10,162 bases of DNA from a virus (Duplodnaviria; Heunggongvirae; Uroviricota; Caudoviricetes). The stretch is taken from IMG/VR virus record IMGVR_UViG_2537561712_000026; one strand, written 5' to 3'. Shown here in pieces: positions 1 to 10,162 of this stretch. The translations under genes and the position numbers were made by a program. The notes beneath the pieces are model-generated. The model worked only from the letters and a program-made list of their open reading frames with translations, made no database searches and was not told where the DNA came from. Each line of letters starts with the position of its first letter. Position 1 is the stretch's first letter.

Positions 1-1362
1 ATGTTTAAACCGGAACTCCTTTCCCCGGCGGGAACGCTGAAAAATATGCGTTACGCTTTCGCTTATGGCGCAGATGCTGTTTATGCGGGCCAGCCGCGTT
101 ACTCCCTGCGTGTGCGCAACAACGAATTCAACCACGAAAACCTTCAGCTCGGCATCAATGAAGCCCACGCGCTGGGGAAAAAGTTTTATGTCGTGGTCAA
201 CATTGCACCGCACAACGCCAAGCTGAAAACCTTTATCCGTGACCTGAAACCGGTGGTGGAAATGGGGCCGGATGCGCTGATTATGTCCGATCCAGGGCTG
301 ATTATGCTGGTGCGTGAGCACTTCCCTGAAATGCCGATCCATCTCTCGGTACAGGCTAACGCCGTGAACTGGGCGACGGTGAAATTCTGGCAGCAAATGG
401 GACTGACCCGCGTGATCCTCTCTCGCGAGCTGTCGCTGGAAGAGATTGAAGAGATCCGCAATCAGGTGCCGGATATGGAGATCGAGATCTTCGTTCACGG
501 CGCACTGTGCATGGCCTACTCCGGTCGCTGCCTGCTCTCTGGCTATATCAACAAGCGCGATCCGAACCAGGGTACCTGCACCAACGCCTGCCGCTGGGAG
601 TACAACGTCCAGGAAGGGAAAGAAGATGACGTTGGCAACATCGTACACAAGTACGAGCCGATTCCGGTGCAAAATGTTGAGCCGACGCTGGGTATCGGCG
701 CGCCAACCGACAAAGTGTTTATGATCGAAGAAGCCCAGCGTCCGGGCGAGTATATGACCGCGTTTGAAGATGAGCACGGCACTTACATCATGAACTCGAA
801 AGATCTGCGCGCCATCGCCCATGTAGAACGCCTGACCAAAATGGGCGTGCATTCGCTGAAAATCGAAGGCCGTACTAAATCTTTCTACTATTGCGCACGC
901 ACCGCACAGGTTTATCGTAAAGCTATCGATGATGCCGCTGCGGGCAAACCGTTCGATACCAGCCTGCTGGAAACTCTGGAAGGTCTGGCGCATCGTGGCT
1001 ATACCGAAGGTTTCCTGCGTCGTCATACTCACGACGATTATCAGAACTACGAATACGGTTATTCAGTTTCTGACCGCCAGCAGTTTGTTGGTGAGTTTAC
1101 CGGTGAGCGCAAGGGGGACCTCGCGGCGGTAGCGGTGAAAAATAAATTCTCCGTTGGCGACAGCCTTGAGCTGATGACGCCGCAAGGCAACATTAACTTT
1201 ACCCTTGAGCACATGGAAAACGCCAAAGGCGAAGCTATGCCGGTAGCACCAGGCGATGGTTATACTGTGTGGCTCCCGGTGCCGCAGGATCTTGAGCTAA
1301 ATTACGCGCTGCTGATGCGTAATTTCTCCGGGGAAACTACGCGTAACCCCCACGGTAAGTGA
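1..1362 (+). CDS. rlhA: U32-family peptidase-like protein YegQ/RlhA (23S rRNA 5-hydroxycytidine synthase), complete
   Basis: 453-aa ORF starting at base 1. Translation recognised from memory as E. coli YegQ, same length, and its position immediately upstream of cyaR matches the K-12 order yegQ-cyaR-ogrK. Not database-verified. Confidence 0.88.
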   Translation: MFKPELLSPAGTLKNMRYAFAYGADAVYAGQPRYSLRVRNNEFNHENLQLGINEAHALGKKFYVVVNIAPHNAKLKTFIRDLKPVVEMGPDALIMSDPGLIMLVREHFPEMPIHLSVQANAVNWATVKFWQQMGLTRVILSRELSLEEIEEIRNQVPDMEIEIFVHGALCMAYSGRCLLSGYINKRDPNQGTCTNACRWEYNVQEGKEDDVGNIVHKYEPIPVQNVEPTLGIGAPTDKVFMIEEAQRPGEYMTAFEDEHGTYIMNSKDLRAIAHVERLTKMGVHSLKIEGRTKSFYYCARTAQVYRKAIDDAAAGKPFDTSLLETLEGLAHRGYTEGFLRRHTHDDYQNYEYGYSVSDRQQFVGEFTGERKGDLAAVAVKNKFSVGDSLELMTPQGNINFTLEHMENAKGEAMPVAPGDGYTVWLPVPQDLELNYALLMRNFSGETTRNPHGK

Positions 1363-1396
1363 TTAATTTCGATTATTTTTCCCGGATGGAAAATTC

Positions 1397-1446
1397 TTAG
1401 AAACCGATCACATACAGCTGCATTTATTAAGGTTATCATCCGTTTC
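1397..1446 (+). promoter_or_regulatory. cyaR promoter: candidate CRP half-site pair plus -10 element
   Basis: TTAGAAACCGATCACA at 1397..1412 (reverse complement TGTGATCGGTTTCTAA, resembling TGTGA-N6-TCACA) is centred about 42 bp upstream of the presumed cyaR 5' end. TATCAT at 1434..1439 is a plausible -10. CRP dependence of cyaR is established knowledge; the exact site assignment is my reading. Confidence 0.5.
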
Positions 1447-1533
1447 GCTGAAAAACATAACCCATAAAATGCTAGCTGTACCAGGAACCACCTCCTTAGC
1501 CTGTGTAATCTCCCTTACACGGGCTTATTTTTT
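1447..1533 (+). ncRNA. cyaR: CyaR (RyeE) Hfq-dependent small RNA
   Basis: Sequence GCTGAAAAACATAACCCATAAAATGCTAGCTGTACCAGGAACCACCTCCTTAGCCTGTGTAATCTCCCTTACACGGGCTTATTTTTT matches my recollection of cyaR. It contains the CCTCCTTA seed-like motif and ends in a hairpin (CCTGTGTAA...TTACACGGG) followed by a T-run. It sits between yegQ and ogr as in K-12. Confidence 0.8.
1507..1533. other. P2-type attachment core (prophage/host junction, attL or attR)
   Basis: AATCTCCCTTACACGGGCTTATTTTTT is the reverse complement of the 27-bp P2 att core as I remember it (AAAAAATAAGCCCGTGTAAGGGAGATT). It lies exactly between host cyaR and phage ogr, which is where attP sits in P2 (ogr-attP-int). Confidence 0.65.
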
Positions 1534-1574
1534 ACGCGTAATACAATGAAATAAAAGGATTTATTTCTGGTCAC

Positions 1575-1592
1575 GTCCACATATTGACCACA
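1575..1592 (-). promoter_or_regulatory. Possible integrase arm-type binding sites (direct repeats TGTGGAC / TGTGGTC, 11-bp spacing)
   Basis: On the minus strand TGTGGTC (1592..1586) and TGTGGAC (1581..1575) are direct repeats one helical turn apart in the att arm between core and ogr. They resemble the P2 Int arm-site motif as I recall it. Confidence 0.35.
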
Positions 1593-1597
1593 TCGAC

Positions 1598-1630
1598 AAA
1601 AAAAGCCCCTCAACTGAGGGGCTTTCTGTT
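1598..1630 (-). terminator. Rho-independent terminator downstream of ogr
   Basis: Minus-strand sequence AAAGCCCCTCAGTTGAGGGGCTTTTTTTG: 8-bp GC-rich stem (1604..1611 / 1615..1622) followed by a T7 run, directly 3' of the ogr stop at 1636. Confidence 0.65.
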
Positions 1631-1635
1631 TGTAA

Positions 1636-1854
1636 TTACATCCACATAATTTGCTGCCCTGACGGCAACGGGTGCGGTCTTACGGCGTGGACTTCTCCCG
1701 GCTTCACGATGTATCGCTGTACCGACTCATAAGTGATGAACGTGGCGCTGCAATTCACGTTCTGACACTGGTGATAACGCTCTTTTGTCGTGTCAGTGAT
1801 ATAGCGACTTGTACGCGCATGTGCGGCATGCTGGCATAAAGGACAATGAAACAT
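1636..1854 (-). CDS. ogr: Ogr late-gene transcriptional activator (zinc-finger, 72 aa)
   Basis: Translation MFHCPLCQHAAHARTSRYITDTTKERYHQCQNVNC... has the CxxC...CxxC zinc-binding motif and is recognised as P2 Ogr / K-12 OgrK. AGAGG Shine-Dalgarno 8 nt upstream of the ATG at 1854. The ORF track's 93-aa version uses an upstream in-frame ATG that I consider unlikely. Confidence 0.88.
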   Translation of the reverse strand: MFHCPLCQHAAHARTSRYITDTTKERYHQCQNVNCSATFITYESVQRYIVKPGEVHAVRPHPLPSGQQIMWM

Positions 1855-1935
1855 CGCGAGCACCTCTTCCGGTTTTGTTGATGGTGCCATTTTAGTTAAT
1901 TTATCCTTATAAAACAAACAGATAAAATAAAAACA

Positions 1936-3099
1936 TCATTCATCATCTTCTGTTTCGTATTCCACATCAGAAAGCCTGACCTCAAGCTCTAAGGACGTCG
2001 TGAAGCCGCTATTATTCAGAAAATGTGTCACCTTAGTGATGGTCCAGTCCTGCTCGTCTATGACGCGCTTAAAGCCTGACACTCTGACCGGTGTTTCCGT
2101 GTAAATATCTGCACGACCGGTAGCCAGGATGATGGAGAACTCCGCAACGCCCCGTTGCAGTTTGTCCCACTTCGCCTGAGCAGCACGCATGGCCTGTGCT
2201 TTCGTGGCATATACCGTGGTCAGGGCAAAAACGTTGTCAGCCTCACCGGCCATGTATTCACCTTCGCGCGCTTCCGGTACTTTTGGCGCTTTCTTCTGCC
2301 TGACCGGTTTCGCTTTCGGGTGCTCCAGTGCGCGCAGGTGTTTCTCTTTCTTTTTGCGTTTCAGTTTTACCTTCTGCTTTTGCGGTTTCGGGTCTTTGGT
2401 GTGTAACCACTTTGCCGTTACACCGGTATAGGCTCCACGGTCAGCAATCGCAAAATGATGGCGGTCGCCGTCGCTGCGGGTTATGGTGACCTGCGGGATT
2501 TTTTTACCGCTGGCCGTCACCCCCTGCCCCGCTTTGAGAAACAACAGTTTTCCCATTTTTACCGAGACCTCACCGCCGTTGCGTTCAGCAAGGCGGGTCA
2601 GGAATTTTGCATCAGACTCCTGCGACTGGTCGATGTGCGGGATTTTAATTCCGGCCAGTGACGGCGCGACACTGGCTTCCAGCCTGTTACGGGAGGCTAT
2701 TGCCTCAACAATCGCACCGAGCGTGGTGTCATGCCAGGAGTCTTCACGGCGGGAATTGAGCGTCCCGCGAAAATCTGCACTCCGGGCGCGGATGGTGACC
2801 ACATCCGGCGCGCCCCGGTGTTCAACCTCATCAACGGTAAATTTCCCTTTGCATACCAGGGCAAAACCTTTCCAGCCGATATACACCGTCAGGACAGCGC
2901 CACGAATCGGCAGCCCGACCTGCCCGTCGGCATCGTTCAGTTCAATATCAAGCTGGTCAGCCTCAAAGCCCCGGTTATCCGTCAGAGTCATGCTCATCAG
3001 ACGGTCGCTGATATTGCCGGTAATATCCCTGCTGTCGAGCATCAGCATGTAATCCGGCGTCAGCGTACTGCCTGCATCAAATGTCAGTGCATCCAGCAT
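1936..3099 (-). CDS. D: Tail/baseplate protein D (phage late control gene D family)
   Basis: 387 aa, the same length as P2 gpD. Position between U and ogr matches P2. Start ATG overlaps the U stop in a TAATG arrangement. Confidence 0.88.
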   Translation of the reverse strand: MLDALTFDAGSTLTPDYMLMLDSRDITGNISDRLMSMTLTDNRGFEADQLDIELNDADGQVGLPIRGAVLTVYIGWKGFALVCKGKFTVDEVEHRGAPDVVTIRARSADFRGTLNSRREDSWHDTTLGAIVEAIASRNRLEASVAPSLAGIKIPHIDQSQESDAKFLTRLAERNGGEVSVKMGKLLFLKAGQGVTASGKKIPQVTITRSDGDRHHFAIADRGAYTGVTAKWLHTKDPKPQKQKVKLKRKKKEKHLRALEHPKAKPVRQKKAPKVPEAREGEYMAGEADNVFALTTVYATKAQAMRAAQAKWDKLQRGVAEFSIILATGRADIYTETPVRVSGFKRVIDEQDWTITKVTHFLNNSGFTTSLELEVRLSDVEYETEDDE

Positions 3100-3578
3100 T
3101 ATCCCGCCCCCGTCATACCTGTGAATTTAGTCGCCATACTGCCAGCCTTACCGATGAGCGATTCCGCCTGTTTACCGATATCGCCATAAAGCGCGGCCAG
3201 TGGTTCGTCAACGCGGGTGAGCGACAGCGTAAAATCAATTTTTCGGGGTGTGCCGTCTGCAAAGAAAATACTCCCTGTTTCACTCACCCTGCTGATGACA
3301 TACATGCCGTAAATCATGCCGGTGCCATCCAGCAACGGCCACGCCCGACCTTCCTCTGCCATCAGCCTGAGCGTGGTCATCGTCAGCTTGCCGCCGGTCA
3401 GTTCGGGATAAAGCACACCGGCCAGCGTCATGTTTTCCTCGCCAACGCCGAGAAACTGGTAGGCATCCCGTTTACCGATACGGGAATTTGACGGCCAGCG
3501 ATAATCTGATTCACGCTGCATGGTCTGGTGTGGCAGCGTCTGGCGCATAAAAACAAACATACCTAACGCGAGCATCAT
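3099..3578 (-). CDS. U: Tail protein U
   Basis: 159 aa, the same length as P2 gpU, in synteny between T and D. Assigned by length and position rather than by direct sequence recognition. Confidence 0.8.
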   Translation of the reverse strand: MMLALGMFVFMRQTLPHQTMQRESDYRWPSNSRIGKRDAYQFLGVGEENMTLAGVLYPELTGGKLTMTTLRLMAEEGRAWPLLDGTGMIYGMYVISRVSETGSIFFADGTPRKIDFTLSLTRVDEPLAALYGDIGKQAESLIGKAGSMATKFTGMTGAG

Positions 3579-3592
3579 TTTTCGTCACCTCC

Positions 3593-6040
3593 TTAACCGT
3601 CATGCATCATGCTGGCACGGGCGCGCGCACGTTTATCCCGCTCGTATTTTTCGAGCGCATCCTGTAACTGGCGGTCAAGCTGTGTCCCCGGCGCAGTACC
3701 ACCCGTCAGGCTGATGTGATATTCGTTTTTACTCTGGTCCACATAAGAGCGGCCAGCCGGTGCCGTGACCGGCTGATAAGCCTGATAGCCTGCATAAGAG
3801 CTGGTCGCCGGAATATAACCACCGGTGCCATACGTGGCGGCATGAGTTCTGGCGGCGGTCTGGTCAAGTGTGTCTGACTCTTTGTTGATAACACCGAGTT
3901 TTTCCAGTACCCAGTCAATACCACTGCGCAGTTTGTTGAACGCATTAAGCGGCAGCATCAACGCGTCAGCCAGTGCCTGCCCGAACATGACGCCCGTGTC
4001 ACGGCAACGGTTCAGGGTGTCCTGGGTGGCTTTGACCGGGGCAATCAGTTTTTTAAACCACTGCCACGCGGCCTGTAACTTTTCACCCAGCCAGTCAAAC
4101 AGCGGCTTAAGTGGCGTGAACAGTTCCCCCACCGGCGCAAATGCAGCTTTCAGCCCTTCAACCACACCGCCAAAGAATGCGCTGACAGGCTCCCAGTATT
4201 TACGGATAAGCAACGCCCCGGCGACAATTGCAGCCACCACGGCCACAACCGGCCAGCTAATCGCCCCGATGGCCGTCATAACAGCACTGCCAACCGTCGT
4301 GAAGATTGCCCCCATTGCGCCTGCTGCCGCGATGATGGCATTAATGCCGGTGATAACCGGCCAGGCTACAAGACCAATTGCACCGATGATGCCAATAAGC
4401 GCCAGTGCGCCACCGACAATAAGGCCGATGGTTGACGCCAGTGATTTGTTTTTCTGGATCCAGCCGTCGAGTTTTAACACATACTTTGTGGCCGTCTGCG
4501 TGAGATTACGCAGTGCGCCTTCCTGTTGGTCAAACAGGTCAGTCCCCACCGCCTCATAAGCGGACTGAAACTCCTTAAAGTCACCGCCGAGGTTGTCCTG
4601 CATGATATTTACCAGCTCTGCGGTCTTCCCGTCTGAGGCTTTAAACGCAGCGGTCAGTTTGTCCAGCTTTCCGGTTGAGGCGGCAGTCATCAGCACGGCG
4701 GCGGCTGAACTGGCCTCCTCCCCGAAAATGGTTTTCATGTATTCAGCCTGCTGGGCAGTACCGAGCCGGTTTTTCTCAAAACTGGCCTGCATTTCTTTCA
4801 GAATGGTAAATATTGGTCGGGTATTCCCCTTGCTGTCTGAGGTTTTCACTCCAAGCTCTTTGAGTGCATCCCATGCTTTTCCCGTCGGTGCCTGCAGGCG
4901 ACTTAACACGGCACGGCTTCCCGTCCCCGCCATTGAGCCTGTGATTTTTGCATCATGCAGCGCCCCGACCATTGCGGCGGTTTCTTCAATGCTGACACCG
5001 GCATTTTTTGCCACAGGTGCGGCATAGGTCAGCGCATCGCTCATACCGTCAAAATCGGCGGCGGTTTTGTTCATCGTCATGGAGAGAACATCCCCGATAT
5101 GAGCAACCTTATCGTTTGAAAGCTGAAAGGCAGATTTCATCCCCATCAGCAGGGCGGCGTTTTCTTCCATCGTGCGACGGTTCGCCAGCGCCATATTCAG
5201 CGTGACCGGCGTTGCCGCCTGAATGGCATCAACATCCCCACCCGCTTTCGCGATGATAATCTGTGCACCGGCCGCATCATCCGCCGAGGCGGCGGTATTG
5301 TCGCCGAGCTGGCGCGCCTGCTTGCGTAGCGCGGCCATTTCGGCGGAGTCTTTTGCCACACCGAGCACGGCCTGTAATTCTGAGTTTTTCTGCGCAAATT
5401 CATAACCGGGCATCAGCAGCTTAACACCGGCCATCGTTCCCGCCGCCGCAATCCCCACACCGGCAGCGCCCACTGAGGCCATATTTCCGGCCAGCTCCTT
5501 TCCTGCCTGATAGCGCTGTTTTACTGCGTTAAGTTTTGCCTGTTGCGCACTGACACGCGCCAGCGCGTCACGCTGCCGGTTAAGCTGTGCGGTGGTTTCA
5601 CTGATACGGTTTTTCAGCCCCAGCTCATCATGTGCAAGATTGCGGGTATTAATTCCCACAGCGGCCAGTTCCCGCTGCTGGCGTTTAACGGAATCCGTCA
5701 GGCGGTTATATTTCGCCTGTAAGTCCTCCGCCGCACGCTTTGCGGATTCCAGCACTTTCGCCTGAGCACGGGTCGGACGTTCGGTGTTTTTAAACTGTGT
5801 GGCAAGGGCTTCGGCCTCCTGCCGTGCCTTTTCAAGTGCATGACCAGTCACGGCGAGCTGTGCGCTGGTCTTGCGGAATCCCTCAATACGGGATGCCTGC
5901 CCGTTCAGCTCGCGCAGTGATTTTTGTGTTTCCCGGATATCCCCCGACAGCGACTTACTCGCTGTGCGGATGGATTTAAACGGGCGGGATGCCTGGTCAA
6001 CAGCCCTGAGCAATACCTGTAATTTTACATTGTTACTCAT
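3593..6040 (-). CDS. T: Tail tape measure protein T
   Basis: 815 aa (P2 gpT length). Coiled-coil-rich N-terminal half, a Gly/Ala/Ile-rich hydrophobic central segment, and the expected position downstream of E/E'. Confidence 0.9.
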   Translation of the reverse strand: MSNNVKLQVLLRAVDQASRPFKSIRTASKSLSGDIRETQKSLRELNGQASRIEGFRKTSAQLAVTGHALEKARQEAEALATQFKNTERPTRAQAKVLESAKRAAEDLQAKYNRLTDSVKRQQRELAAVGINTRNLAHDELGLKNRISETTAQLNRQRDALARVSAQQAKLNAVKQRYQAGKELAGNMASVGAAGVGIAAAGTMAGVKLLMPGYEFAQKNSELQAVLGVAKDSAEMAALRKQARQLGDNTAASADDAAGAQIIIAKAGGDVDAIQAATPVTLNMALANRRTMEENAALLMGMKSAFQLSNDKVAHIGDVLSMTMNKTAADFDGMSDALTYAAPVAKNAGVSIEETAAMVGALHDAKITGSMAGTGSRAVLSRLQAPTGKAWDALKELGVKTSDSKGNTRPIFTILKEMQASFEKNRLGTAQQAEYMKTIFGEEASSAAAVLMTAASTGKLDKLTAAFKASDGKTAELVNIMQDNLGGDFKEFQSAYEAVGTDLFDQQEGALRNLTQTATKYVLKLDGWIQKNKSLASTIGLIVGGALALIGIIGAIGLVAWPVITGINAIIAAAGAMGAIFTTVGSAVMTAIGAISWPVVAVVAAIVAGALLIRKYWEPVSAFFGGVVEGLKAAFAPVGELFTPLKPLFDWLGEKLQAAWQWFKKLIAPVKATQDTLNRCRDTGVMFGQALADALMLPLNAFNKLRSGIDWVLEKLGVINKESDTLDQTAARTHAATYGTGGYIPATSSYAGYQAYQPVTAPAGRSYVDQSKNEYHISLTGGTAPGTQLDRQLQDALEKYERDKRARARASMMHDG

Positions 6041-6206
6041 TCGTGTTTCCGCTTCGCCTGAGCGCCTTTTCGCGCCATGTGATGAGTTCGGTCAGGCTCA
6101 TGGGATACAGTTCTGATGGCGGCCAGTGAAATACCACTGCCACATCCGCCATCAGGTCATCGACCGAGAGATTTTTCGGAAACGTCACTGCACCGAGTTC
6201 GGCGAC
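6033..6206 (-). CDS. E': E' extension of the tail assembly chaperone, reached by programmed -1 frameshift from E (E+E' fusion 142 aa)
   Basis: Slippery heptamer TTTTTTG on the minus strand (plus 6206..6212) lies 6 codons before the E stop. Reading on in the -1 frame gives 57 more residues (VAELGAVTFPKNLSVDDLMADVAVVFHWPPSELYPMSLTELITWREKALRRSGNTNE) and stops at TAA 6033..6035, overlapping the T start (ATGAGTAA). 85 + 57 = 142 aa, the P2 E+E' length. Confidence 0.8.
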   Translation of the reverse strand, partial: VAELGAVTFPKNLSVDDLMADVAVVFHWPPSELYPMSLTELITWREKALRRSGNTNE

Positions 6207-6460
6207 AAAAAACCGACCACCTTACCGGCCAGCGCCACAAGGTCAGGCAGTTCCAGCGCGGCGACCTCCTGTTCGGTCAGCATCGGTGCCGTCATGCGCG
6301 GCAGCACTTTAATCAGTGCATCGACTTCGGAGTTCGCGACCGCAGCCAGACTGACACCGCGCAGCGTCCCGGCATTGGGTTTCATCAGCGTGACCTGTTC
6401 GATAACCTGCTCACCACGCTTGACCGGATTGTCCAGGGTAATCACATTTTCTTTGTTCAT
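6185..6460 (-). CDS. E: Tail assembly chaperone E
   Basis: 91 aa, MNKENVITLDNPVKRGEQ...; length and sequence recognised as P2 gpE; located between FII and T. Confidence 0.88.
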   Translation of the reverse strand: MNKENVITLDNPVKRGEQVIEQVTLMKPNAGTLRGVSLAAVANSEVDALIKVLPRMTAPMLTEQEVAALELPDLVALAGKVVGFLSPNSVQ

Positions 6461-6488
6461 GGTTTTCTCACTTCTGAATCAGGGTTAA

Positions 6489-6509
6489 CCGGTCAGCCTG
6501 GCTGACCGG
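6489..6509 (-). other. Intercistronic stem-loop between FII and E (no U-tract)
   Basis: CCGGTCAG-CCTGG-CTGACCGG: perfect 8-bp inverted repeat with a 5-nt loop in the 56-bp FII-E spacer. Followed by TTAACCC rather than a T-run, so not a classical intrinsic terminator. Confidence 0.4.
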
Positions 6510-6516
6510 ATGAAAA

Positions 6517-7035
6517 TCACAGGCCGATATTGCGGCGGTGTTGCTCCAGCCGGTCGACGCCGTTCACCTTCTCAATCATGTTGATGGTGTCGATTTCGAC
6601 CAGCTCCTTACCGTCCATCGTCAGCCGGAAATAGGTGCAGACCACGGAGATTTTCGACTCGGTGTCTTCTCCCTGTTTACCCTCGCCGGTGTCGATTTCT
6701 TTCTGACGGCCACGCATGACCACCTCGACGGCCACCGTTTCGCCGGTATCGTCGCGCTGGTAAGAGCCTGCAAAACGAATCGGTACGGCATCCACACCGG
6801 TTGCGGCGTAAAGCTCCCAGATAACCGAATCCGGGAAGCCACCGAGCGACCACTCCATTGACAGCGCATCGTCATCAAGGCCGAGGTCTACCGGTGCGCT
6901 GCCATTCATCCCCGCACCGCGATAGTTTTCGAGCTTACGGGTCAGTTTTGGCAGCGTGACGGACTTCGCGACGCCCTGATAGCTGTAGCCGTTCAGAAAG
7001 ACGTTCATTAACTTGAGTTTGCGCGGCATTGCCAT
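6517..7035 (-). CDS. FII: Major tail tube protein FII
   Basis: 172 aa (P2 gpFII length); sequence recognised; AAGGAG Shine-Dalgarno upstream; follows FI with a 12-bp gap. Confidence 0.9.
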   Translation of the reverse strand: MAMPRKLKLMNVFLNGYSYQGVAKSVTLPKLTRKLENYRGAGMNGSAPVDLGLDDDALSMEWSLGGFPDSVIWELYAATGVDAVPIRFAGSYQRDDTGETVAVEVVMRGRQKEIDTGEGKQGEDTESKISVVCTYFRLTMDGKELVEIDTINMIEKVNGVDRLEQHRRNIGL

Positions 7036-7047
7036 CGGTCAGGCTCC

Positions 7048-8238
7048 TTAATTGCTGTTAACCGAGGTGACCAGATTTGCCAGGTATTTATCGGTGATAC
7101 GCTGGCGCAGGGTCAGGTTTTCAAGAGGAGGTACCGGTGTATAGTCGTAGTCGATATACAGTTTTCCGGCCTTGAGGGTTTCCGCATCGCTGGATTCTTC
7201 GCTGAACCAGCAGGTCGCATCCACGATATAGCCGTTTGTTTTCAGCTCACGGAATTTGGCATTGATGCCGTCAACGATGTCGCGAATCAGCGTTGCGGTG
7301 ATGGGCTTGTCCACCGCCCACATGTGCGCCTCAGCCATCGTGTCGGCCAGCACCTGCGCGGTGCGGGTGTAGTTTTCAAAGAGGAACAGCGGGTCATCAG
7401 AGCAGGTACGGTTACCCCAGAAGCGGAAACCGTCGCGGCGAATCAGCGTAGTGACGCCTGACTCGTTAAGCAGGTCAGCATCGGTGCCGGACTCCTGCAA
7501 ATCCCAGAATACAGATGCGCTGATGCCGTTAACACCGTTTACCCCGACGTTGGACAGCGTTTTATGCCAGCCCTGCTCCTGGTCGATTTTAGCGCGCAGA
7601 CCCAGCGCACGGGCGGTGGCATACGCGGTGGCGGTGGTGCTGCTGACCGTATCCCATGCGAGGAAATCCGGCCAGATGACCATCAGCTCACGCTGGCTGA
7701 AATTCTGGCGGTAGGCTTTCACCTCGGAAATGGTTTTACAGCCCCATGCGCTGATATACCCGAAAGCGCGCAGCTTCTGACAGACTGATGCCAGTGCAAC
7801 AGCCACCTCTTTGGTGTCCAGTCCCGGCACGCCGAGAATACGCGGTTTAACACCGGTTACCGACTCTGCCGCCAGCAGGGCTTTCAGTCCGGTATACTGA
7901 CCGTTTTCGTCAGTGGTGCCGATGATATTGGAAACGGTCTGCGCGAGTTTCGTTTCTTCGTCGTCGCCGGTGCCGTCTTCAACACGCACGACAACGGTAA
8001 CCGGTTTTGACTGGTCAGCGATGGCCTGCAACGATGCCGCCAGCGTGCCTTTTTTACCGGCCTTTGCAATTGCGCTCTGCACATTGGTAATCAGCACAGG
8101 TTTATTGAGGGGGAAGGTTTCCGCATCCGCATCGCTGGCCGTGCAGACCATGCCGACAATGGCGGTGGATACGGTGGAAATGACGCGGGTGCCGTCGTTA
8201 ATCTCCAGCACCTGCACGCCGTGATGATAATCACTCAT
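7048..8238 (-). CDS. FI: Contractile tail sheath protein FI
   Basis: 396 aa (P2 gpFI length); sequence recognised as P2-type tail sheath; first gene of the FI-FII-E-T-U-D operon. Confidence 0.9.
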   Translation of the reverse strand: MSDYHHGVQVLEINDGTRVISTVSTAIVGMVCTASDADAETFPLNKPVLITNVQSAIAKAGKKGTLAASLQAIADQSKPVTVVVRVEDGTGDDEETKLAQTVSNIIGTTDENGQYTGLKALLAAESVTGVKPRILGVPGLDTKEVAVALASVCQKLRAFGYISAWGCKTISEVKAYRQNFSQRELMVIWPDFLAWDTVSSTTATAYATARALGLRAKIDQEQGWHKTLSNVGVNGVNGISASVFWDLQESGTDADLLNESGVTTLIRRDGFRFWGNRTCSDDPLFLFENYTRTAQVLADTMAEAHMWAVDKPITATLIRDIVDGINAKFRELKTNGYIVDATCWFSEESSDAETLKAGKLYIDYDYTPVPPLENLTLRQRITDKYLANLVTSVNSN

Positions 8239-8335
8239 CCGTTTAACTCCGTGGTTAATGGGTGAGTGATATTTTCAGTTGTGCCGGAGATGTCAGGCTA
8301 TTTGTCCCGGTTGGCTAAGGGATGACACAATTTAT
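8239..8335 (-). promoter_or_regulatory. Expected Ogr-dependent late promoter region for the FI operon (element not resolved)
   Basis: Position only: P2 late promoter P_F lies immediately upstream of FI. I could find only imperfect TGT-N12-ACA-like dyads here (for example TGT-N12-CCA on the minus strand around 8311..8329). The region overlaps the 3' end of the invertase gene. Confidence 0.3.
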
Positions 8336-8891
8336 TCTTTGTCGCTGATGAGGGGAATTTTTTATAGAGCGTGGACAGGCCAATATCAAAAATCAGCGCC
8401 ACACGTTGACGAGATTCCCCCGCAGCCAGCAACCGTCCGACCTGCTCCCACTCACTCGTGGTGAGTTTCGGTCGTCTGCCACCAATACGACCTTTGGCTC
8501 TGGCCGCTTCCAGTCCGGCGCGTGTCCGCTCGACAATGAGTTCTCGCTCCATTTCTGCCAGGGCCCCCATCACATGAAAGAAAAAGCGCCCCATCGGCGT
8601 GCTGGTATCAATAGCATCCGTCAGGCTGCGAAAATTAACGCCGCGTTCGCGCAGTTCCTCAACCAGAATGACCAGATGCCGCATACTACGCCCCAGCCTA
8701 TCCAGCTTCCAGACTACCAGAGTGTCACCTGCTGATAATGTTCTGAGCAGTTTTTTCAGTCCCGGTCGGTCGGACTTCGTGCCGCTGATTTTATCCTCAA
8801 AAATCAGCTCACATCCTGCACACTCCAGCGCATTACGCTGCAATTCCGTGTTCTGGTCATTTGTTGACACGCGTACATAGCCAATAAGCAT
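8298..8891 (-). CDS. Serine DNA invertase, Hin/Gin/Cin/Pin family
   Basis: Translation MLIGYVRVSTNDQNTELQRNAL...VVWKLDRLGRSMRHL...MGRFFFHVMGALAEMERELIVERTRAGL...GRIGGRRPKLT...STLYKK closely resembles E. coli Pin and Mu Gin, with the catalytic Ser in YVRVSTNDQ and a C-terminal helix-turn-helix. Start chosen at the ATG at 8891 (197 aa); ATG 8897 is an alternative. The ORF track's 265-aa version (to 9095) has a 66-residue N-terminal extension I consider non-coding. Confidence 0.85.
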   Translation of the reverse strand: MLIGYVRVSTNDQNTELQRNALECAGCELIFEDKISGTKSDRPGLKKLLRTLSAGDTLVVWKLDRLGRSMRHLVILVEELRERGVNFRSLTDAIDTSTPMGRFFFHVMGALAEMERELIVERTRAGLEAARAKGRIGGRRPKLTTSEWEQVGRLLAAGESRQRVALIFDIGLSTLYKKFPSSATKNKLCHPLANRDK

Positions 8892-8946
8892 GAGCATCTC
8901 CCTGAATAAAAACCGGAGATGATGCCAGTTACCCGTTATTTCTGCA

Positions 8947-8972
8947 TTTTCATAAACGTTGGTTTGGGAGAA
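8947..8972. other. Candidate 26-bp inversion crossover site (hix/gix/cix-like), left border of the invertible segment
   Basis: TTTTCATAAACG-TT-GGTTTGGGAGAA has the 12-2-12 architecture and the AAACC/GGTTT-type inner half-site motifs of hixL and gixL as I recall them (TTCTTGAAAACC-AA-GGTTTTTGATAA, TTCCTGTAAACC-GA-GGTTTTGGATAA). It lies 56 bp upstream of the invertase start and inside the open tail-fibre frame. Confidence 0.5.
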
Positions 8973-9445
8973 GCGGCAAAACGGGATGTGGGGACAGGGG
9001 AAAATCAGCCACTCCGCCGACAGGCTGGCTGAAATGCAACGGGGCGGCTTTTTCTGCTGAAGAATACCCGGAACTGGCAAAGGTTTACCCGACAAATAAA
9101 TTGCCTGATTTACGTGGTGAGTTTATTCGTGGCTGGGATGACGGACGTGGAGTGGATAACGGAAGGGGATTATTGACGCTTCAGGACGGTGCGATTGTCA
9201 GTCATAACCACTATTGGGGAATCTGGACTTCACGAACTAACGACCAGACTCTGGAAAGTTTTACAGGCACCACGATTTTAAAACAAATCACGCCCCTGTC
9301 TCCGGCCATTAACTTCGATAATTACCCAATTCCCAACCCGGCTATTACAGAGGGTGGTGTTGTTGCGGCAACGACTAAACCTGCAGGTGCGAATGAAACA
9401 CGCCCACGAAATGTCGCTTTTAACTATATTGTGAGGGCTGCATAA
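8960..9445 (+). CDS. Tail-fibre C-terminal variable (receptor-binding) cassette; no start codon or promoter in this orientation
   Basis: The frame is open from 8906 to the TAA at 9443..9445 with no in-frame ATG (the track starts it at a TTG at 9101). It encodes ...GWLKCNGAAFSAEEYPELAKVYPTNKLPDLRGEFIRGWDDGRG...RPRNVAFNYIVRAA, resembling the C-terminal region of P2 H and Mu S (AYPKLAVAYP...LPDMRG...NIAFNYIVRLA). It begins at the candidate crossover site. Confidence 0.6.
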   Translation, partial: WFGRSGKTGCGDRGKSATPPTGWLKCNGAAFSAEEYPELAKVYPTNKLPDLRGEFIRGWDDGRGVDNGRGLLTLQDGAIVSHNHYWGIWTSRTNDQTLESFTGTTILKQITPLSPAINFDNYPIPNPAITEGGVVAATTKPAGANETRPRNVAFNYIVRAA

Positions 9446-10047
9446 TGAATAACGCAGAATTAAACAGTGAATTAATTGCCACTATGGCAGGAGAAATTAC
9501 TGTTTATAACTTTGATGTCATGAGTCGGGAATATATTTCAGCTTCAACTGAATATCTTGCTATTGGTGTCGGCATTCCGGCATATTCCTGTTTAGATGCC
9601 CCAGGCGCATACAAAGCTGGTTATGCAATCTGCCGTTCTGCAGATTTTAACTCATGGGAATATGTGCCAGACCATCGCGGTGAAATCGTCTTTAGCACCG
9701 AAACAGGAGAATCAAAAGAAATCACCGCTCCGGGTGATTACCCTGATAATACAACCACTATCGCCCCGTTAACGCCATACGATAAATGGGATGGTGAGAA
9801 ATGGGTGACGGATACCGAAGCACAGCATAGCGCCGCAGTAGAAGCGGCAGAAACACAACGCCAGTCGCTGATTGATACTGCAATGGCTTCCATTAGTCTG
9901 ATTCAGCTGAAATTACAGGCCGGACGGAAGCTGACGCAGGCAGAAACCAACCGACTTAACACGGTGCTGGATTACATTGACGCGGTGACGGCAACAGATA
10001 CCAGCACCGCGCCGGATGTCATCTGGCCTGAACTGCCGGAGGCGTAG
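9445..10047 (+). CDS. Tail-fibre assembly (chaperone) protein, Tfa / P2 G / Mu U family
   Basis: 200 aa. ATG overlaps the upstream TAA (TAATG coupling). C-terminus ...LDYIDAVTATDTSTAPDVIWPELP has the conserved Tfa C-terminal motif. Confidence 0.8.
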   Translation: MNNAELNSELIATMAGEITVYNFDVMSREYISASTEYLAIGVGIPAYSCLDAPGAYKAGYAICRSADFNSWEYVPDHRGEIVFSTETGESKEITAPGDYPDNTTTIAPLTPYDKWDGEKWVTDTEAQHSAAVEAAETQRQSLIDTAMASISLIQLKLQAGRKLTQAETNRLNTVLDYIDAVTATDTSTAPDVIWPELPEA

Positions 10048-10162
10048 GCCATTCAATATCTGGCGCACTGGCGGTATCGACCAGCTCCAGTGCGTCCAGA
10101 TAATCCAGCCACAAATTATATTGTGCCAGTTCCTCACCTTTCAGATGGTAATGGATGGATGA
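10019..10162 (-). CDS. Second tail-fibre assembly protein, C-terminal 47 codons only (5' end beyond window)
   Basis: Minus-strand frame reads ...HYHLKGEELAQYNLWLDYLDALELVDTASAPDIEWPTPPAVQAR with stop at 10019..10021. This is the same conserved Tfa C-terminal motif, convergent with and overlapping the plus-strand tfa by 29 bp. It is absent from the ORF track because no start codon lies inside the window. Confidence 0.65.
   Translation of the reverse strand, partial: SSIHYHLKGEELAQYNLWLDYLDALELVDTASAPDIEWPTPPAVQAR

Follow-up and report, generated by a model that had tools for sequence, protein, structure and literature searches.

The preferred chromosomal attachment site of bacteriophage P2 in E. 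coli is called locI. Around the core of the phage site (attP), P2 arranges an IHF site, the repeats of the Int 'P arm', the ogr terminator and ogr, and its integrase is a tyrosine recombinase whose N-terminal domain binds the arm sites while the core-binding domain binds the core (PMC3448106). Prophages of this type have been placed at the small RNA gene cyaR, also called ryeE, on several occasions. 'cyaR RNA' is listed as the P2-type insertion site in E. coli W, K-12 (ogr-D') and B (PMC3032704, Table 2), E. coli ryeE has been described as 'previously known to be targeted by phages' (PMC3603311), and a yegQ-locus insertion of the same prophage type has been reported from spinach-outbreak O157:H7 strains (PMC4928038).

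The use of structured RNA genes as integration targets is not confined to P2. Phages that integrate at the 3' ends of tRNA and tmRNA genes, such as 186 in tRNA-Ile and Fels-2 and SopE-phi in ssrA, follow the same logic, in which the 3' part of a structured RNA gene is repeated in the phage core, so that the gene survives (PMC3448106). At cyaR, however, the target is the terminator of an Hfq-type sRNA, with no tRNA-like acceptor or T-arm, and the core is short, measuring 27 bp against 50-110 nt in the 186-type phages that use tRNA genes (PMC3448106). In Salmonella, too, phages attach at an sRNA gene, ryeB/sdsR (PMC3603311; PMC3333887), although there the sRNA, the phage and the host are all different.

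Here we analyse a stretch of 10,162 nucleotides of viral DNA, referred to throughout as the window. We are highly confident that it contains the junction on the ogr side of a Peduovirus (P2-type) prophage, integrated at the classical preferred chromosomal site of P2, the 3' end of the CRP-dependent sRNA gene cyaR. In P2 naming this junction is attR, the ogr-adjacent arm being 'P'. A junction between the E. coli chromosome and a P2-type prophage at cyaR is already known and documented, and belongs to textbook P2 biology.

The junction between cyaR and the phage arm

Features of P2 were placed on the window by alignment to AF063097 (alignment A1), and the bacterial side was annotated from Pfam, Rfam and K-12. 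The features at and around the junction are as follows.

1-1362, + strand: yegQ/trhP, the bacterial gene upstream of cyaR (Pfam Peptidase_U32 and Peptidase_U32_C; named yegQ in EC4115 and trhP in K-12)
1447-1533, + strand: cyaR (ryeE) sRNA gene, intact (K-12 annotation transferred, L003 2115-2201)
1498-1533, + strand: cyaR intrinsic terminator, with stem 1498-1508 / 1515-1525, loop 1509-1514 and U-tail 1526-1533 (Rfam structure line, RNA fold and terminator scan)
1507-1533: att core of 27 bp, the chromosome/prophage boundary (27/27 against the annotated P2 attP core)
1532-1565: stretch homologous to the P2 IHF site (AF063097 protein_bind IHF 24324-24357, via alignment)
1569-1596, - strand: Int 'P arm' arm-type sites (AF063097 protein_bind Int 'P arm' feature, by alignment)
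1601-1625: rho-independent terminator of ogr and the F operon (AF063097 regulatory feature by alignment; + strand terminator-scan match 1602-1625)
1636-1854, - strand: ogr, late-gene activator (Pfam Ogr_Delta, 1.1e-21; ogr/ogrK in P2 and EC4115)

The core at 1507-1533, AATCTCCCTTACACGGGCTTATTTTTT, is identical at 27 of 27 positions to AF063097 24356-24382, which is annotated as 'attP' and 'Int attP core'. A first-pass annotation of this DNA had taken the 27-mer for the P2 att core and proposed that it be aligned to P2 attP; the alignment bears this out. BLAST similarity to P2 and related Peduoviruses begins at base 68 of a query taken from 1440, which corresponds to window position 1507. To the left of this point P2 and the window are unrelated in the alignment, and over 1507-1938 their identity is 96.8%. 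The 27-mer occurs once in the window, against 0 expected from shuffled sequences. Combined with the Rfam match to CyaR described below and with ogr and the late tail genes that come next, these results bear out the central claim of the first-pass annotation, namely a prophage integrated in the 3' end of cyaR.

Two simpler accounts of the shared sequence were considered and rejected. That the phage itself carries cyaR is ruled out by P2 attP, which has no cyaR similarity upstream of the core. A chance match is ruled out by the expected numbers of occurrences, 0 for the 27-mer and 0.02 for the spaced arm repeat. A general repeat search of the window returned nothing further of relevance to the att site.

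The sRNA gene is recognized by Rfam RF00112 (CyaR_RyeE) at 1445-1530 on the + strand, with 100.7 bits against a gathering score of 47 and coverage of model positions 1-85 of 85; this is the single Rfam family found in the window. Position 1447, from which the first-pass annotation had started the feature, is the annotated 5' end of cyaR when the K-12 annotation is transferred. The RNA folds into a short hairpin followed by the terminator (-19.8 kcal/mol, z = -3.0). After integration this terminator is intact, with an 11-bp stem, a 6-nt loop and the tail UAUUUUUU, the Hfq-binding 3' end, and the cyaR sequence through 1533 is the same as in the empty-site allele.

The relationship between core and terminator had been described in the first-pass annotation as a coincidence of the 27-mer with the hairpin and U-tail. 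This is correct for the loop, the 3' arm, the U-tail and the top 2 nt of the 5' arm, but not for the rest of the 5' arm, where 9 of 11 bases lie outside the core and are bacterial only.

Upstream of the gene, inspection by eye reveals TCACA at 1408-1412, some 42 nt before +1, together with TATCAT at 1434-1439. A sigma-70 consensus scan of 1300-1950 found no promoter, and the absence of a consensus match fits a CRP-dependent cyaR promoter. At the other end of the gene, about 41% read-through at the CyaR terminator has been measured in a reporter study (PMC9765468). In the lysogen, such read-through would meet the phage terminator at 1601-1625.

On the 3' side of the cyaR core, the window presents the putative IHF stretch, the P arm, the ogr terminator, ogr and the tail genes, in that order. 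P2 attP has the same 27-bp core and, in the same order, the IHF site, the P-arm repeats, the ogr terminator and ogr. The predicted IHF stretch (1532-1565), situated between the core and the P arm, carries 5 differences from P2, all within 1537-1545, and is identical to the corresponding stretch of the K-12 remnant. In the P arm, two 8-mer direct repeats on the minus strand, TGTGGACG (1581-1574) and TGTGGTCA (1592-1585), are spaced 11 bp apart, about one helical turn, and the spaced motif TGTGGTCAATATGTGGAC at 1575-1592 on the same strand is the sole match in the window, with 0.02 expected. The arm consensus of the P2 group is tgTGGaCa (PMC3448106). The minus-strand repeats TGTGGAC / TGTGGTC, which the first-pass annotation had picked out as likely Int arm-type sites, fit this consensus and lie inside the P-arm homologue at 1569-1596, in agreement with that assignment.

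The mechanism by which this junction would have arisen is drawn from established knowledge of P2 and the heterobivalent tyrosine integrases, as summarised in PMC3448106. Int and IHF would recombine the 27-bp attP core with the identical 27 bp that end cyaR. Because the attP and attB cores are identical, the core is duplicated on integration, and for the same reason CyaR reads identically through the U-tail whether the site is occupied or empty. The sRNA gene therefore survives integration.

The identity of the two cores also means that the point of strand exchange is not readable from the sequence, and the share of the rebuilt cyaR 3' end that is physically phage DNA depends on where within the core exchange takes place. 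TAA-TCTCCC-TTA is found in the core of attB and of attP alike, and in attB this extends into a near-perfect inverted repeat, the terminator stem. Given the flanking inverted TAA/TTA and the terminator stem, the loop TCTCCC is the likely overlap region, and exchange probably occurs in or next to it. Exchange at that position would leave the junction with a 3' arm and U-tail made of phage DNA, as the first-pass annotation had proposed.

The complete prophage and the empty site

Beyond ogr, the window continues into late genes of P2 type and then into sequence that P2 lacks.

1936-3099, - strand: D (Pfam Phage_GPD; EC4115 annotation)
3099-3578, - strand: U (Pfam Phage_P2_GpU; EC4115 annotation)
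3593-6040, - strand: T (Pfam PhageMin_Tail; EC4115 annotation)
6033-6460, - strand: E/E' (Pfam Phage_TAC_7; EC4115 annotation)
6517-7035, - strand: FII (Pfam Phage_tube; EC4115 annotation)
7048-8238, - strand: FI (Pfam Phage_sheath; EC4115 annotation)
8298-8891, - strand: serine invertase gene (Pfam Resolvase and HTH_7; EC4115 annotation)
about 8951-8974: likely invertase crossover site (crossover-like sequence TTCATAAACGTTGGTTTGGGAGAA)
9101-10162: tail-fibre and tail-fibre-assembly cassettes (Pfam Caudo_TAP; EC4115 annotation)

The P2-type tail genes span 1936-8238, with full-length Pfam matches, whereas the invertase and tail-fibre cassettes at 8298-10162 are prophage cargo absent from P2. 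The prophage is a relative of P2, not P2 itself, set apart by the five IHF-stretch substitutions and by what follows FI, a serine invertase with invertible tail-fibre cassettes.

About 8.6 kb of the prophage fall within the window, and the int end with its second core is known from genomes that are 99.8% identical. This identity holds over 1-10145 to E. coli O157:H7 EC4115 and to many other O157:H7 genomes, while none of the complete RefSeq E. coli genomes matches the window at 100%. Across 1380-1700, window and EC4115 are identical. EC4115 carries the element as a complete prophage of P2 type, from ogr to int, with exact cores at L002 3444-3470 and 35404-35430, which are 31,960 bp apart. The second core lies 80 bp past the int stop codon, the sequence to its left is the int-side attP arm of P2, and the integrase is identical to P2 Int at 337 of 337 residues. 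A second copy of the core at the distal prophage end, which the first-pass annotation had anticipated, is accordingly present as an exact copy at the integrase end of the EC4115 prophage, and on the ogr side the EC4115 junction is the same as that of the window. Escherichia ruysiae carries an independent lysogen with both junction types (L019/L017), in which a second core is likewise found beside int.

We compared the junction with the K-12 chromosome, where the cryptic prophage PR-X (ogrK-yegZ) is annotated as overlapping the last 18 nt of cyaR. In this comparison, which the first-pass annotation had suggested for the cyaR-ogrK junction, cyaR, core, P arm and ogr are nearly base for base alike in the two. 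PR-X, however, is down to 629 bp, namely ogrK and part of D, and its right-hand core is incomplete (TACACGGGCTTATTTTTT), whereas the late region of the window is intact. The existence of such a remnant at the same core, together with the fact that the window stops short of the int end, lends some substance to the idea that the window too derives from a defective or truncated P2 remnant, its junction being a fossil with no present function. Against this stand the late genes of the window, intact over at least 8.6 kb and matching Pfam families in full length, the 747 of 5,426 complete E. coli genomes that hold at least 80% of the window contiguously, and the closest genome, EC4115, with its full 32-kb prophage, both cores and an intact Int. 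We consider the remnant explanation very unlikely, and read the window as most probably one end of a complete prophage of P2 type.

In K-12 itself, at L003 2800-2830, the partial core TACACGGGCTTATTTTTT is fused to the gene D fragment, and the break falls exactly at the boundary between the loop and the 3' arm of the core. An aberrant event at the point of strand exchange could account for a break in this position.

The unoccupied form of the locus was rebuilt by joining the cyaR side, one core and the yegR side, giving a query of 423 nt. Two O157:H7 strains, PV15-279 and Z903, contain this rebuilt site in one piece and with 100% identity. The empty site is whole in these sister strains, and the prophage is therefore a clean, core-bounded insertion. 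Of the 5,426 complete E. coli genomes, 4,565 show an empty-type arrangement in one place; small remnants, that of K-12 among them, are counted here.

These comparisons also bear on a further explanation, in which the 27-mer would reflect chance or convergence and the phage genes would have come to lie beside cyaR through another integrase or target, or through homologous recombination with an older remnant. P2 arm and ogr remnants are frequent at the cyaR site in E. coli chromosomes, and homologous recombination with one of them is possible in principle. Nevertheless, 0 exact 27-mers are expected, P2 similarity starts precisely at the edge of the core, the sister-strain empty site differs by exactly one core-bounded insert, and the Int of EC4115 is identical to P2 Int. 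Taken against this evidence the explanation is extremely improbable, and Int-mediated integration at the shared core remains our reading of the junction.

Several features of the element and the locus are recorded here in their own right. In some lineages, for example in ST131 genomes, the empty-site query matches in two pieces over about 593 bp instead of 423, pointing to a small insertion of some 170 bp within or close to the att core. The internal differences between the window and EC4115 all lie at 8974-9004, beside the crossover-like site, where the window matches the reverse complement of the other inverted repeat of EC4115 (L002 12751-12803); the last 17 nt of the window are also unlike EC4115. 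The pattern of these differences suggests a different state, or a mosaic, of an invertible host-range segment. Relative to P2, the far end of the EC4115 prophage holds a different cargo module, annotated 'ABC-three component system'. Its genes, together with that for an AAA ATPase, occupy L002 25684-29373, between the portal and replication genes, and the module is likely to be anti-phage defence cargo at a P2 variable locus.

A probable trace of an older phage arm, and the core outside Escherichia

The yegR-side flank of the E. coli empty site contains an exact 15-mer, CATTGACCACATCGA, that equals the distal P2 Int arm site (window 1582-1596). It lies 33 nt from the core in the empty-site flank, compared with 48 in the phage arm. 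The 15-mer lies within L002 35431-35500 in EC4115 and within L003 2828-2900 in K-12, and the IHF and P-arm similarity that surrounds it has decayed. Escherichia sp. MOD1-EC7003 (L024) presents an intermediate state, with a less decayed flank that is plainly a degraded P2 IHF/P-arm. E. ruysiae (L017) has neither the arm relic nor yegR, and yegS starts within about 88 nt of the core. Compared with E. ruysiae, E. coli (K-12, L003 2828-3716) has about 800 extra bp, consisting of the relic, yegR and an AT-rich spacer.

Judged from these sequence relationships, it is more likely than not that an earlier P2-like lysogeny has left its fossil at the 'empty' site of E. coli, and yegR may be a domesticated gene or leftover of such an ancient lysogen. 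A present-day function for the relic, in which the retained arm-type site CATTGACCACATCGA would still bind Int and help to make this the preferred site of P2, appears unlikely.

The exact 27-mer also forms the 3' end of cyaR outside Escherichia. It does so in at least 11 Kluyvera species representatives (L006-L008, L011-L014, L016, L018, L022 and L023) and in two records labelled Enterobacter hormaechei (L004 and L015). In Kluyvera intermedia (L023), as in E. coli ECDA1023 (L005), a variant P2-like arm follows directly after the core. The presence of such an arm beside a Kluyvera core suggests that cyaR probably serves as a P2-type attachment site outside Escherichia as well.

Implications for annotation and for sRNA genes as phage targets

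The biology of this junction is not new, given that the P2 system, the K-12 remnant at cyaR and the yegQ-locus prophage of the O157:H7 spinach-outbreak strains have already been described or annotated. For annotation purposes, the boundary of the prophage should be placed at 1507/1533, inside cyaR, and the locus can be used as a control example in scans for integration into sRNA genes. It provides a clean case of a phage that attaches at the terminator of an Hfq-dependent sRNA and leaves the gene undamaged, as other phages do with the 3' ends of tRNA genes.
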